DNA of 64,000 nucleotides from Escherichia coli (lineage in GTDB: Bacteria > Pseudomonadota > Gammaproteobacteria > Enterobacterales > Enterobacteriaceae): assembly GCF_044324785.1 (NCBI RefSeq), contig NZ_CP172127.1, one strand, 5' to 3'. The position numbers were made by a program, and so were the translations under genes. Below are positions 44,290-50,156 of this stretch, piece by piece (position 1 is the first letter of the stretch; every line of letters begins with the position of its first letter). Below the pieces are notes generated by a model. The model saw only the letters and a program-made list of their open reading frames with translations, was not told the origin of the DNA and did no database searches.

Positions 44290-44664
44290 TTATTTCGTTA
44301 TCTTAAATGCTATTTCTACATCACTCGTCCTTATAATCAAATTATTCTTATTCATAGCTATTTTTGCAGGTTTAAAATAGCGGCTTTCACCAAAGTCAGC
44401 CATAAAAATTAGACTACAAGTTCTCCCAGCCTTTGCACATGAGAAAAACCACCCATCAACTCTATTTATTCCTGAACCTTTAACACCATAATAAATCAGA
44501 ATTTCTGGGTATTGTTCATCCTTCACGTTTTCATATTTTTGGTATTTAATTGAAAACCAAGAGTCTATACTGCCAACATCTTCAAAAAATATTGGAGCTG
44601 ATGTTTCCGCATGAACATATGCAGAAAATGCTAACAAAATGGCAATACTTAGTTTGGTAAACAT
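44290..44664 (-). CDS. Predicted secreted immunity protein for the orphan Rhs C-terminal toxin
   Basis: AT-rich ORF directly downstream of and overlapping the orphan toxin; N-terminal signal peptide [22 protein letters not shown]; start ambiguous (GTG at 44676 or ATG at 44664). Confidence 0.6.
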
Positions 44665-45452
44665 ATCGTTCCACACTTTTCAGGATAATCTATTGGGGGG
44701 AGGGGATCTTTTCCTCTAAATCTAATTGCACCCACGCCTTGTTTGTCAGACCATTCGCCATTTGCATCCTGACGATACCAGTGATAATCCCCACCCATTC
44801 CTATAAAATTGTGAGGACGAATAAACAATTGAGCTTTATGGTAACCAGATGGACAACTCCCATTATCTAAATCCTTGGCACCATCATTTTTTGACGCTTC
44901 AAAAATACTACTACAAGTGAGTTTAGAAAACTCTTTTCCAGATAATTCTCCAGGTTGTAATCCTCCGCCGCCAAAAATCCTACTCCCAGGATTTCCATAC
45001 CTATTTAGAGCATATGAATAGCAATTATTTACGGCAAGATAATACGCATCTGAATTTAGTTCTCGATTGAATACTGGAGCAGGTTTATCAATTAAGCCCA
45101 GCGGATCAATAGAATAGGTTGGATGTATGGAAGCATATACATACTGATTCCACCCGCCTTCCAGCCCAATCGGATCCTGAGTGATATACCGCCCCTGCAG
45201 CGGGTCATAATAGCGGTGGCGGTTGTAATACAGGCCGGACTCCTCATCATACTGCTGCCCCGGCAGACGGATAAGCTGCTGCAGGTGCTGCGGGTTCTCT
45301 TCATTCAGCAGGTTGCCCCATTCATCATATTCTGCGCACCATTCTGTTGCCCCGTCAGGGCTGATAAGCGTCAGCGGCAGGCCGCGATAGTCGCAGTGGT
45401 AGAGGTGGATTATTCGCAGTGATCTATATGCCAACGTCATCTTATTTTTCAT
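44649..45452 (-). CDS. Orphan Rhs C-terminal fragment: end of Rhs core plus a distinct toxin domain
   Basis: 267 aa; N-terminal 120 aa nearly identical to the end of the rhsC core ([12 protein letters not shown]...[17 protein letters not shown]); C-terminal ~147 aa unique; own ATG with GGAG. Confidence 0.8.
45161..45410 (-). repeat. Rhs core-end repeat, orphan copy (~93% identical to 46481-46730)
   Basis: Direct DNA repeat found by aligning the two stretches; offset exactly 1320 bp. Confidence 0.85.
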
Positions 45453-45504: not shown

Positions 45505-46008
45505 TTAAATTTTCTTATGTAATAGAGGTGAATAATCTTCCCAAAAATCCATACAAGCTTTACTTGCATAAAAGAATCCAGCGTCTGATTCATAAGACAT
45601 AAACTGTGCAATAATAGATAGTTGTATATCTGAAAAATTAAAAACAAAATTCAAAAAATCATCGTGATCCCGATACTCAGGACATAAATATTGTTGAATA
45701 AAATCGGATTCAAAAACCCAAAAATCATTCTTATTAAACAACGAGGCATAAATATACAGAGGGATGTAATAGCAGAATACTTTCTCAGGGAGGAATGTAA
45801 TTCCTAACTCTAAAGCATAAGAGTCATCCTTTATTTTAAAATTGTTGGCTATTTCATTCCATTGTTTCTTTTGGAAAAAATTATATACAATATCCAGTTC
45901 CTCCAGCCCTGTAATATCATTTGAAATATGAGGTAATGGCTGGCATGGGAAATGAATCATAAGTTCATCATAGACTGCACTCTCGTTAGAGAAAATTATT
46001 TTTTTCAT
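45505..46008 (-). CDS. Predicted cytoplasmic immunity protein for the rhsC C-terminal toxin
   Basis: AT-rich 167 aa ORF whose ATG (46006-46008) overlaps the rhsC TGA stop (46005-46007) in an ATGA arrangement; no signal peptide. Confidence 0.65.
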
Positions 46009-49000
46009 TTTATTAAGCCACTGCAATCAGCTGCTGTTTTATATGCTTTATTCTCTTCTTCCATATGGGCCTTATCTCCACCACCAAAGCACTGATTATT
46101 AATCTGCTTTCTGACCGAAGCGCACGCCAAATTTATCTCGTACCGTCTCAATATTTCTTTTCTCAGCATCTGAGGAGCGCAAGCTCTAGACTGGTTACAT
46201 AATCTGTTTTTTTCATTTTGTAAGTCACTCAGGTTCTGGGGACTACAGTTACCACCAGGATTTACACCTGACTTATGTTCATCTGTTAATTTGTCGGCTT
46301 CTGGATTAACTTTACGGCCATATTGATCTCTGCGTTGTTGCCCACTTTGGATAACACCACCTGATGAAAACAAACCGCAACTCATCAGTGCTACAACACC
46401 AAGAATTAACGGATTTAACCCTTGTGGGTCTATCTCTGAGATCGGATTTAACGGATACTGATAAAAATTCCATCCCCCCTTCAGTCCAATCGGATCCTGA
46501 GTGATATACCGCCCCTTCAGCGGGTCATAATAGCGGTGGCGGTTGTAATACAGGCCGGACTCCTCATCATACTGCTGACCCGGCAGGCGGATGAGCTGCT
46601 GCAGCTGGTGCGGGTTCTCTTCATTCAGCAGGTTGCCCCATTCATCGTATTCTGCGCACCATTCTGTTGCCCCTTCCGTGCTGACAAGCGCCAGCGGCAG
46701 GCCGCGATGGTCGCAGTGGTACAGGTGGATTTTTCGCGCCGGCGTGTACACCGGGTCCATCTGGTTTTGTATCTGCTCCACCGTCAGGCCGCACGATGCC
46801 AGCCAGCGGCGGCTTTCCTCACTCACCCGGTCAGCCAGGATTTCACTTTCCAGCCGGTCGAGCATCTGCACCAGCACCGGCGGGAACACCACACTGCCAC
46901 CGTCTTCACCGCCGGACTGCTGAAGCGCATCCGCCAGGCTGCGGCGCTGCGTTTTCGCCAGCTCACCGGTGGCGGTTTCGACCCTGATGAGTGGCGTGAA
47001 GCTCCCCGGCTGATAAACCGTCTGGATGCGGGTTCTGTCGTTCTGTATCGTGGTCAGCCGGTCGCCGTCCCAGCCGTACCAGGTCACTTCCGGTTTCCGT
47101 GACAGCGACATCCAGCCCGTCAGGTCCCGTTCACGCCGCCACACCCGTTTTGCCACCCTGCGGCCCAGCGGGTCGTAAAGATAGCGACTTTCGACCAGCG
47201 GCTCTGCATATTGTGTCCGCGTGTAGTGCACCAGCCGGTGCCGGCTGTCGTAATGGTACTGGTGAGTCCGCTCATCATCCGTGCGGATAACCCCTTCCGG
47301 GATGAGGTCGGTTTTCTCTGTCAGCCTGCCGTGACGGTCATACCGGTAAAGATAGTGCGCGTCACGGGCGATACGGTTATCCGGCCACATGCTGAGGGTG
47401 CTGTCCGGGTGCAGCTCCGGGTCGGGCAGGCGGTTGCCTGCCGGGTCCGTGGCATACGGGATGCGGATATCAAGGTTCGCTGCCGTGGTGTGGACGCCGG
47501 TCAGCCTGCCGGTGTCGCTGTAGCTGTAACTCCGGGTCTGGCGCGGGCTGCTGATGCGGATGAGTTCGCCGTTGTCGTTCCAGGTGTAATCGCGGTCATA
47601 CTGCAGGCTGTTCAGGTGCTGGCTCTGTAACTGCCCGGCAGAGGTATAAGCGGTGGTGAGTTCATAACGGCCGAAGCTGCGCAGCGTTTCCCGGTGCAGG
47701 CGGTCGCGGGTATACTCCACCAGCGGTGTGTCGCCGAGTTTCATGCCTGCCAGCCAGCCGCTGCCGTAAGTCAGCCATTCCACGGCGGGCAGGCTGTCCG
47801 GTATACAGCGGTTCGCCAGCCCCTGCGCGTTGTACGCATGTCTGGTTTCATGCTGCCAGAGCAGTGCTTCCGTCTGCGGGTGATGCACCGTCTGGCGCTC
47901 ACCGGTCAGGCGGCCTTTCTCATCATACCCGTAATGCACCGTCACCCGGTGGCCTTCGCTGAGATGGCTGATGCCTGTCAGCCAGCCGCGTTCGTCATAC
48001 TGCCACTGCTCTGCAGGTTCACCCTTCACGGTACGCTGCGTGATGCGGTCTGCTTCGTCATAGTGCCAGTGGGTGACCAGCCCCTCATCCTCGCTGCGGA
48101 TAAGTTTGCCGGTCAGGTCGTGGTGATAACGCTGTGTACGGCCGTCAAAGCCGGTTTCCTGTATCAGCCGGTCGAGTACATCGTAACGGAAGGTGGTGTG
48201 GCTGCCGTTTTCACTGGTCAGGCGGATGACCCGTCCGGCAGCATCGTATTCCATACTGCGCGTCAGACCGCCCTGCGTGGTACGGATGGCCTTTCCCCAC
48301 GCATCGTACTGTGTCCCGTTTCTGCTGCCGTCCGGGGCAATGACGGCGGTCAGGTCACCGGCGGCGTTGTATTCATACCGCGTTTCATGGCCCTGCATGT
48401 CTTTCACCGCAATTAACTGTCCACGGCTGTCGTATGCGCGGTACTGGCTCAGGCCTTCCTCGCGGTGCACCGCCGTCACCTGACCAAAACGGTCATGGTC
48501 ATAACGGGTTACATAACCGGAACAGTCAGTGACGGTCAGCAACTGACCGTAACGGCTCCATGTCATGGTTTTCCGGCTGCCGGTGGCATCTTCCGTTGCG
48601 CAGGGTAAGTCACTGTGTGGATTATCATAACGGTAGCGGGTGATATCGCCGTTGTGTGCGGTTTCCTGAATCAGACGGCCGGATTCATCATATTCCCGGC
48701 GCAACTCCAGCCCGTCAGTCCCGGTGGCTGACGTTAACTGGTTGTGGTGGTTATAGTAAAACGCCGATGCCCTGCCATCCGGTGTGGTGATGCGCGTGAT
48801 GAGTCCCGTCACCACATCCGGGCTGTACTCAGTCGTCCGGCCTGCGGCATCCGTCTGTGCCTTAAGCCTGCCCACCGCGTCAAACTGACTCTGCGTGACG
48901 CTGCCGTCCGCGTGTTCCTTTTTCACCACCCGCTTCAGCCCGCCTTCGCCCTGCGTGTGCAGGACTTCACGGCGGTCCAGGCTGTCGGTGATGGTGATGT

Positions 49001-50156
49001 GGTCTTTCTCATACTGATACGTGTAGCTTAAGCCTGCCGGGTTTAGCTGTTCTGTCACCCGCCCGTCACTGTCGTAACGGTAACGGATTTCCGGCCGGCC
49101 CGTGTGACGGTGCGCCACCATCCGGCCCCGGTATTTATCATCGTAAGTAAAGCTGCGCACCTGTGTGCCGCTGCGGTCATACACCGCCGCCAGTTCGCCG
49201 CGTGGCGTCCAGCCATAGCGTACCAGCGGCGCGGCTGGCAGGTTGTCCGGATATTCCGGGTCGTGCGTCAGCCACACGGCAGACAGACGGATGCCGTTGT
49301 CCCGGCCATATTCGGTGTAACCCGGCAGGGTATCAGGAAAAGCGGACGGTTCCGCCCCGCCGGAAATGGCCTGCTGCCGGGCCTCTTCTGCCCGCAACGC
49401 CTGCGTGGTCAGTACCAGCCGGAAGTGACGCCCGGCACCATCCGTCACGCCGGTGATTTCGCCGCTGAATTCGCCGCCAGCCTCACGGTGGAACGTCTGT
49501 GTGCGCCCGAAGCGGTCCACCAGCCCGGTCAGTACCCGGTACGGCGGCAGTGGCGCAGGCAGCACCTCATCCGCCTCCGGCACCCGCTCACACCAGCCGA
49601 GTACCCACCACGGCCCCTGCGGACTGTTCGTCGCCAGATAACGATGCGGACTCAGGCGAAGCTCTTCCGGCAGCGCCTGCCAGAGTGCGGCCAGCCGGTG
49701 ACCTTCATCCAGTTTCGCCACGCCGCCGCGCACCAGCCAGAGTGACTCGCTGCGGCTGTAACCGTCCTCACCGGGAAACAGGTGCTCAAAATACAGGCTT
49801 CTGCCGCCGTTATCACTGAGTATCAGTGTGTTATCGCGCAGCTGTAAGCGGATATCCGCAGGCATTTTCCAGCCGGGGCCGAGGCTCCCCACCGGCGCGG
49901 GCGTTTTTGTCCGGTAACTGCTGTAGGTGCGGGAGAGGATGAACGGCAGCGGGCCGGGCAGGGCAAGGTCGGTTTCTCCGGGAAGGACCTTCGCACCGAG
50001 CAGCGGATTGACCGGATGGCCGGACGTCACCCCGCCGGGGCACACCGAACAGGCCACGCCGGTGGGGGCACCAATACGTACCCCGGCTGAACCCTGAACA
50101 ATGCTACCGCCATACTGCGTCATGTCGCCCTGACGCGCCGCCGGTTTTCCGCTCAT
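46005..50156 (-). CDS. rhsC: Rhs family polymorphic toxin (rhsC-like): YD-repeat core plus 136 aa C-terminal toxin domain
   Basis: 1383 aa; N-terminus [29 protein letters not shown]; YD/RHS repeats; core ends at ...DPQGL; GC-rich core versus AT-rich tip; position next to ybfA as for K-12 rhsC. Confidence 0.93.
46481..46730 (-). repeat. Rhs core-end repeat, full-length rhsC copy
   Basis: Partner of 45161-45410. Confidence 0.85.

Follow-up and report, generated by a model that had tools for sequence, protein, structure and literature searches.

An orphan Rhs cassette beside rhsC of Escherichia coli with a predicted papain-fold toxin domain and a signal-peptide-bearing immunity protein

Results

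The Orphan Cassette at the rhsC Locus

We analysed a stretch of 64,000 nucleotides (nt) from Escherichia coli (contig NZ_CP172127.1, assembly GCF_044324785.1), referred to below as the window, and concentrated on an orphan rhs cassette that codes for a toxin domain and its cognate immunity protein. The window is the rhsC region of E. coli and Shigella, with the gene order pxpABC-ybgI-dtpD-phrB-ybgA, the cassette, rhsC and ybfA-kdp, and the coordinates of its relevant features are collected in Table 1. Residues 1-120 of the orphan open reading frame (ORF) belong to the Rhs core, as indicated by matches to NCBIfam RHS_core (1.5e-57, positions 1143-1261), TIGR03696 (9.8e-24) and Pfam RHS (3.3e-12). 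This part closes at residues 116-120 with DPLGL, a boundary of the PxxxxDPxGL motif type, and the 147 amino acids (aa) C-terminal to it are unique. In Rhs proteins, release of the toxic tip takes place after this boundary motif, DPLGL or DPxGL.

The core arm of the orphan was 93% identical in DNA to the 3' core of the main rhsC over 272 nt and 76% identical in protein (main rhsC residues 1129-1247). The G+C content was 0.39 in the DNA of the toxin domain vs 0.62 in the rhsC core. The orphan ORF carries no PAAR domain and no YD-repeat shell; it is a short frame lying directly downstream of the main rhsC and its immunity gene on the same strand, and the same tip occurs on full-length Rhs proteins elsewhere. 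The core profiles, the DPLGL end and the homology to the main rhsC thus bear out the original prediction of an orphan Rhs module. Orphan rhs modules of Salmonella and E. coli are alike in that a core remnant, an alternative tip and an immunity gene follow the full-length rhs, with a homology arm for recombination (PMC7043789).

Table 1. Features of the rhsC locus in the window and two examples of reduced cassettes in other E. coli strains.
Feature	Position	Strand	Description and basis
Orphan rhs ORF	44649..45452	-	267 aa; Rhs core remnant and toxin domain; ORF list, profile matches
Rhs core remnant, residues 1-120	45093..45452	-	Ends in DPLGL; homology arm in common with main rhsC
Toxin domain	44652..45092	-	147 aa; predicted papain-fold Cys-His hydrolase
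Cognate immunity gene	44290..44664	-	124 aa; ORF list, RefSeq start, orthologues after homologous toxins
Sec signal peptide of immunity protein, residues 1-19	44608..44664	-	Sequence reading; script for hydrophobicity and -3/-1 rule
Full-length rhsC	46005..50156	-	1383 aa; own tip Ntox16; RHS_core, Ntox16 PF15523
Immunity gene of main RhsC tip	45505..46026	-	173 aa, without signal peptide; hypothetical protein in related strains
Cut orphan, E. coli EC2257	L083 2464-3048		Equals window about 44872-45452
132-nt immunity scar, E. coli APEC O78	L085 2501-2632		Equals window 44290-44421

Conserved Motifs and Cysteine Pairs of the Toxin Domain

Two motifs stand out in the toxin domain. NNCYSYALN covers residues 142-150 of the ORF, with its cysteine codon at 45021..45023 (Cys24 of the domain), and DYHWYRQD covers residues 222-229, with its histidine codon at 44781..44783 (His104). 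Conservation was assessed on 131 domain sequences taken from a whole-database hidden Markov model (HMM) search. C24, P47, H104 and K117 were conserved at 100%, N23, G48, D70, Y27, S115, Y136, R107, W114 and D102 at 95-99%, and the residues neighbouring the Cys and His at 72-99%. Position 116 was His in 81% of the sequences and is Asp in the E. coli domain. As judged from these alignments, the Cys and His motifs are not chance resemblances and form the core of a toxin family.

Four further cysteines were gained and lost in twos. Cysteines 60 and 140 were both present in 101 domains, both absent in 23 and discordant in 7; for cysteines 80 and 144, the corresponding counts were 99, 26 and 6. Because these non-catalytic cysteines come and go as pairs, the disulfides Cys60-Cys140 and Cys80-Cys144 are predicted, and the odd number of cysteines counted in 88 of the 131 domains is consistent with one free catalytic thiol. 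Disulfides do not form in the cytoplasm, and the two implied here would need an oxidising compartment.

Predicted Fold and Family Placement

The AlphaFold (AF2) model of the toxin domain, built from a 42-sequence alignment, had a predicted local distance difference test score (pLDDT) of 88 and a predicted template-modelling (TM) score of 0.83. In this model, helix 24-29 begins with C24, and strands 102-108 and 114-117 contain H104 and residue 116, respectively; this places the Cys at a helix N-terminus and the His on an antiparallel sheet as expected of a papain fold. Since the Cys on the helix precedes the His on a strand and residue 116 follows on the next strand, the elements are in the order of non-permuted papain, NlpC/P60 and CHAP enzymes; the 12 residues from His104 to residue 116 are a spacing that we take to be that of NlpC/P60 enzymes. 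Invariant residues and modelled element order together support the earlier suggestion that the two motifs resemble the Cys and His positions of papain-like or CHAP-type amidases.

Fold searches returned mostly papain-fold enzymes, including CHAP endolysins, MepS and other NlpC/P60 hydrolases, staphopains, the C39 domain of PCAT1, Josephin and USP deubiquitinases (DUBs), Tae3, Tse1, TseH and AvrPphB. The likeness to Tae-type enzymes is structural and holds at the level of the fold only. Scans of the toxin and the immunity protein against Pfam, NCBIfam and PHROGs gave no match beyond the Rhs core, and sequence searches of the PDB, with the single sequence or the family profile, gave none or chance-level matches only. 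No family member matched Tox-PL1 (PF15644) or Tox-PL-2 (PF15643) at E <= 0.1. The E. coli domain had no match to DUF7689 (PF24738) at E <= 10; among the sets of 42 and 147 relatives, 2 and 3, respectively, matched it at E <= 1e-3, and 9 and 13 at E <= 0.1, with alignments that spanned the CP.GYHK...DYHWYRQD...WSHK core in a few members. By these profile matches, DUF7689 is probably a sister family. A Tox-Act1- or TseH-like identity was rejected, because circular permutation puts His before Cys in those enzymes, whereas Cys24 precedes His104 here.

The original prediction could not place the domain in a named family and proposed a structural search. Foldseek with the toxin model against AFDB50 yielded 103 matches at E <= 1e-3 with functional annotation on none, and literature searches by motif, accession and DUF7689 found nothing on the toxin family. 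The model thus places the domain in the papain-like fold class, in no named family, in agreement with the earlier statement.

The Immunity Protein and Partner Genes

The immunity ORF begins with an ATG at 44664, opening a 19-residue signal peptide that precedes a mature protein starting with ETS; RefSeq places the start at the same codon in strain 1190. The GTG of a longer, 128-aa ORF (44290..44676) is probably not the true start. The ATG overlaps the last codons and the stop of the toxin by 16 nt, which suggests translational coupling. The signal peptide, with the n-region MFTK, a 13-residue h-region and V-H-A at -3 to -1, is canonical by the rules for n-, h- and c-regions and for positions -3/-1. 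AF2 leaves residues 1-22 of the immunity protein disordered and folds the remainder, at a pLDDT of around 80, into a single helix and then seven strands. The signal peptide and a Cys-x6-7-Cys pair are conserved in the orthologues encoded downstream of homologous toxins in Acidovorax and Variovorax. Thus, on signal-peptide rules and orthologue conservation, the immunity protein is predicted to be exported, as those of Tae/Tai-type pairs are. The exact protein was present on 452 contigs of E. coli, Shigella boydii and S. dysenteriae and was named "hypothetical" throughout.

A genome scan gave 135 relatives of the toxin domain, and the locus counts refer to the best 80 of these 135, which came from Proteobacteria, Bacteroidota, Acidobacteriota, Firmicutes, Verrucomicrobiota and Asgard archaea. 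Of the 72 downstream partners that could be scored, an automatic and lenient classifier assigned 48 to signal-peptide, lipoprotein or membrane-anchored proteins; of the flanking ORFs, it flagged 37% (binomial p = 3e-7, without correction for phylogeny). Manual reading counted exported partners in about 46 of the 80 loci; they include Gram-positive lipoproteins, one with a BamE-like domain.

Outside Rhs contexts, the commonest neighbour of the hydrolase was a domain of ~110 aa with the motifs "[FY]SGRPNPxW" and "LGYRGF", here called SGRPNP, which was also found fused to the hydrolase N-terminus in alpha-proteobacterial loci. Its representatives had no Pfam match. The SGRPNP partner carries a signal peptide in Lysobacter, Rugamonas, Duganella, Corallococcus and others (loci L022, L026, L032, L044, L045, L048, L059, L072 and L074-L078) and is without one at loci L014, L024, L031, L035, L037, L047, L049-L051, L054, L056, L060, L063, L065, L071, L079, L081 and L082. 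The domain may be a dedicated inhibitor or a pro-domain. A second exported immunity family, of 134-209 aa with a signal peptide or lipoprotein signal and the core "D..SG...Y.[YF]......W.L", was found downstream of the toxin in Pseudoxanthomonas, Saprospiraceae, Bacteroidales and Sphingomonadales (loci L005, L008, L020, L034, L066 and L068). Its kinship with the E. coli-type group was not demonstrable, the hhalign comparison giving E = 0.003 but a probability of 9.6%.

Size, Spread and Architectures of the Toxin Family

An exhaustive HMM profile search over 1.84 billion representative proteins detected relatives of the toxin domain in 3,495 representative clusters at E <= 1e-3 and in 1,756 at E <= 1e-10. 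This exhaustive search was needed to reveal the family, for a word-indexed homologue search found only 5 relatives of the toxin and 7 of the immunity protein. The domain ended at most 15 residues from the C-terminus in 125 of 153 retrieved proteins.

The AFDB50 matches extended to Methanothrix, a giant-virus metagenome protein and many eukaryotes, namely the corals Acropora, Pocillopora and Stylophora, sea anemones, the green algae Tetradesmus and Raphidocelis, Acrasis, rotifers and Dreissena. Among them was the bivalve "Insoluble matrix shell protein 1" (UniProt P86982), an extracellular matrix protein; papers naming "insoluble matrix shell protein" dealt with IMSP5 and IMSP6 or contained the name only. 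The eukaryotic and viral homologues showed 27-31% identity, TM scores of 0.65-0.75 and Foldseek E-values of about 1e-8, and they may reflect horizontal spread of the bacterial toxin domain.

Some full-length relatives contain RHS repeats, PAAR or PAAR-like domains, and others have their own signal peptide or lipobox together with LamG, bulb-lectin (B-lectin), Ig-like, dockerin, trypsin, thioredoxin or Peptidase_M23 modules. For example, P0103 (838 aa, metagenome) combines a signal peptide, Ig-like repeats and Peptidase_M23 with a toxin-type domain at the C-terminus, and P0146 (328 aa) is a fusion of an N-terminal thioredoxin (WCGHC) to such a domain. On contigs L039, L041 and L042, which come from Bacilli-type metagenome-assembled genomes, the domain lies inside a protein of ~730 aa with ~100 aa C-terminal to it, and a gene for an FtsW/RodA family peptidoglycan polymerase (PF01098, 3.5e-109) follows 94 nt downstream. 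This lineage may represent a housekeeping cell-wall context.

Distribution and Turnover of the Cassette in E. coli

The toxin-immunity segment was found in 40 of 5,426 complete E. coli genomes at 98.6% DNA identity. In the genomes examined it forms the tip of a full-length RhsC, with an internally deleted rhsC pseudogene in 1 of the 40. Relative to the main RhsC tip of strain 1190 (WP_001605137.1) and its partner, the window has an identical toxin domain (100%) and a single changed residue in the immunity protein. The exact arrangement of the window, with an Ntox16-tipped main RhsC, its immunity gene and an intact orphan, occurred in no complete genome of the collection.

In the nearest relatives of the window (99.6-99.8% identical), the orphan is cut at about 44872 after ~193 codons, the immunity gene is lost and an ISAs1 family pseudogene adjoins the break. 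A further 337 of the 5,426 genomes retain only the last 132 nt of the immunity gene, unannotated, between the ISAs1/ybfD pseudogene and ybgA. This scar shows that many lineages formerly had the cassette as the terminal orphan of rhsC.

Neighbouring Features

The last 136 aa of the main RhsC (46005-46412, minus strand) are an Ntox16 toxin (Pfam PF15523, 7.7e-13). A DUF6714 match (5.8e-5) in the bundled Pfam scan probably traces to the 173-aa immunity partner of this tip. Between ybgA and the cognate immunity gene, the segment 44044-44289 is AT-rich, with short mechanical ORFs and nothing else identified. A promoter and terminator scan at the cassette gave nothing convincing, promoter-like sites being fewer than in shuffled sequence.

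Discussion

The data support, at the level of sequence and along four independent lines, a toxin that acts outside the cytoplasmic membrane. Its immunity protein bears a signal peptide that is conserved in the Acidovorax and Variovorax orthologues, the partners of related hydrolases are mostly exported, and the non-catalytic cysteines covary as pairs. Moreover, members of the family are often secreted themselves, and the eukaryotic homologue that bears a name belongs to the extracellular matrix, which also argues for extracytoplasmic action. These observations lend support to the original prediction that a signal peptide on the immunity protein implies a toxin acting in the periplasm, and we consider it quite likely that the domain is a cysteine hydrolase which works in the periplasm or the envelope.

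Several points weigh against this interpretation, and some of them concern the compartment. Rhs proteins usually carry cytoplasm-directed tips (PMC12994826), and in 19 of the 80 loci, from alpha-proteobacteria and Asgard archaea, both the hydrolase and its SGRPNP-family partner are without a signal peptide. Both facts would suit a toxin that acts in the cytoplasm like the papain-like effector Cpe1, with an exported protein that either is distinct from the true immunity protein or neutralises the toxin during transit; nevertheless, the gene pair is translationally coupled, the signal peptide is kept across genera, the covarying cysteine pairs indicate disulfides, and Gram-positive lineages also have exported partners, all of which makes cytoplasmic action highly improbable. 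In addition, a metagenome toxin 54% identical to the E. coli domain (P0033) is followed by a 154-aa multi-pass membrane protein (L002 4962-5426), and this polytopic partner of so similar a toxin would fit a membrane-associated substrate. This partner and the E. coli-type immunity protein both start with MF(T/A)KL because their genes overlap the conserved end of the toxin, ...ICLPN and its stop codon, which dictates this sequence.

The other counterpoints concern the activity. Peptidoglycan is our best guess for the substrate, held tentatively and at rather less than even confidence; toward it point the fold neighbours, the one fusion of signal peptide, Peptidase_M23 and toxin-type domain, and the one lineage directly upstream of FtsW/RodA. 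On the other side, the NlpC/P60 profile (PF00877) had no Pfam match in the query or in the 42 and 147 relatives scanned, the toxin domain did not match the CHAP profile (PF05257), and hhalign of the family against a profile of MepS orthologues gave a non-significant probability of 0.7%, in a weak test with a shallow profile whose homologues are all at least 79% identical to MepS. LysM, SH3b and peptidoglycan-binding modules were in none of the 147 full-length relatives scanned, proteases and DUBs scored equal to cell-wall amidases in the fold searches, and the family is without its own Pfam entry, solved structure or characterised member. The scores of staphopain, the C39 domain of PCAT1, USP, Josephin and AvrPphB, the lack of wall-binding modules and the homologues in eukaryotes and archaea would all fit a toxin that attacks a protein of the periplasm or outer membrane as a cysteine protease, deamidase or transglutaminase; its target might be a lipoprotein, a cell-wall synthase or a component of Bam or Lpt, and the extracytoplasmic evidence applies equally to such a toxin. 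However, no candidate protein is known, the M23 fusion and the FtsW/RodA neighbourhood lean to the cell wall, and the spacing from His104 to residue 116 would be that of NlpC/P60 enzymes, so that we regard a protein substrate as unlikely. It is improbable that the toxin hydrolyses envelope lipids or acyl groups in the manner of Tox-Act1, TseH and LRAT-type NlpC/P60 enzymes and attacks, on the periplasmic side of the membrane, the acyl chains of phospholipids, lipoproteins or lipid-linked precursors, given that the known lipid-acting NlpC/P60 enzymes have the permuted order that is not found here (PMC12994826) and that the immunity proteins of E. coli, Acidovorax and Variovorax are small, soluble and exported; the membrane-protein partner of the metagenome toxin is a point of likeness to Tox-Act1 and TseH.

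For a periplasmic cysteine hydrolase directed at peptidoglycan, we propose the following mechanism. Cys24 at the helix N-terminus would act as nucleophile, with His104 in the second core strand as general base and Asp116 in the next strand, and the two disulfides would stabilise the fold. Type VI secretion systems (T6SS) deliver PAAR-Rhs proteins, and on this basis we infer that the domain, when carried as the tip of a full-length PAAR-Rhs protein, would be fired into a neighbouring cell, released after DPxGL and act in the periplasm. There, the likeliest reaction would be the cleavage of amide or peptide bonds in peptidoglycan stem peptides, as performed by Tae, CHAP and NlpC/P60 enzymes, and the Sec-exported 124-aa partner would block the incoming toxin in the same compartment. 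The account as a whole, that is, a periplasm-acting papain-fold Rhs tip with an exported immunity protein, held in reserve in this genome, has in our judgement an even chance of being right.

There are precedents for polymorphic Rhs toxins, for orphan cassettes and for papain-fold T6SS effectors of the periplasm. The Tae1-4/Tai1-4 systems (Tse1, Tae3 and Tae4 among them) are T6SS effector/immunity pairs whose effectors are papain-like or NlpC/P60-type peptidoglycan amidases; the toxin domain has no sequence-profile match to the Tae families and differs in being fused to Rhs rather than a stand-alone cargo of Hcp or VgrG, in its two predicted disulfides and in its own conserved motifs. The other cell-wall enzymes compared were CHAP and canonical NlpC/P60 hydrolases, for example phage endolysins and MepS. 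Tox-Act1 and TseH are likewise papain-like T6SS toxins that are toxic in the periplasm, and a membrane-protein partner also accompanies a close relative of the E. coli toxin, but they are circularly permuted NlpC/P60 phospholipase effectors (PMC12994826) and the E. coli domain is not permuted; the toxin motif was absent from the supplementary files of the same paper. Tox-PL1, Tox-PL2 and Tox-PL3 are C-terminal papain-like domains on Rhs and other polymorphic-toxin scaffolds (PMC3482391). Tox-PL1, with its NC-H-DxQ signature, shares only the "NC" dipeptide with NNC...H of the E. coli domain, and Tox-PL3 (C, [DE]H, [DE], R; PMC3482391), which has no Pfam model, was compared by description only. 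With this limit on the Tox-PL3 comparison, the domain family is new, very large and reaches eukaryotes, and it is without model, structure or function. A tip with a predicted periplasmic site of action is also unusual on an Rhs protein.

In the present genome, the cassette is intact, lies at the distal end of the rhsC locus and, as read from its sequence, is a reserve toxin with a working immunity gene, for the toxin domain is 100% identical to the full-length RhsC tip of other E. coli. The orphan itself is undeliverable here because it has neither a PAAR domain nor an Rhs shell, and the 64-kb window contains no T6SS genes. The orphan would be a silent reserve tip, which homologous recombination through the 93%-identical core arm could swap for the Ntox16 tip on RhsC. 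If the toxin were translated here, it would have no export signal and, in the periplasmic model, no substrate. A toxin-antitoxin-like role, as proposed for Salmonella orphans, is unlikely. The immunity gene would be the part that matters now, in that it would protect against kin that deploy this toxin. It could also be argued that the cassette is a decaying remnant without present function, since it lacks a delivery domain, the same cassette is truncated by ISAs1 or reduced to the 132-nt scar in many E. coli, and the simple promoter scan gave nothing convincing. Yet both ORFs are intact, all catalytic and structural residues are kept, and the pair is still nearly identical to the deployed main-RhsC version (one immunity residue apart), which makes decay very unlikely.

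A broader and more speculative view, which we think doubtful but worth stating, is that this E. coli Rhs tip offers a tractable entry to a vast superfamily (>3,000 representative clusters) of disulfide-bonded papain-fold hydrolases. Such a superfamily would span polymorphic toxins, secreted lectin-fused bacterial proteins, archaea, giant viruses and secreted proteins of eukaryotes (bivalve, corals, green algae and amoebae), and it would have dedicated inhibitors, namely the E. coli-type immunity protein and the "SGRPNP...LGYRGF" domain. If the domain does have a distinct activity directed at the envelope, its eukaryotic copies could be another example, after the Dae amidases, of toxins that were domesticated for defence against bacteria. 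As the toxin/immunity pair exists in E. coli both as a deployed RhsC tip and as an orphan, it provides a ready genetic system for studying activity, compartment, substrate and the role of disulfides in the target cell. A defined activity would annotate thousands of "hypothetical" proteins and make sense of a shell-matrix and cnidarian protein family for which proteomics is so far the only source. In addition, the rhsC locus illustrates cassette turnover, with the intact orphan, the ISAs1-adjacent truncated orphan and the 132-nt immunity scar.

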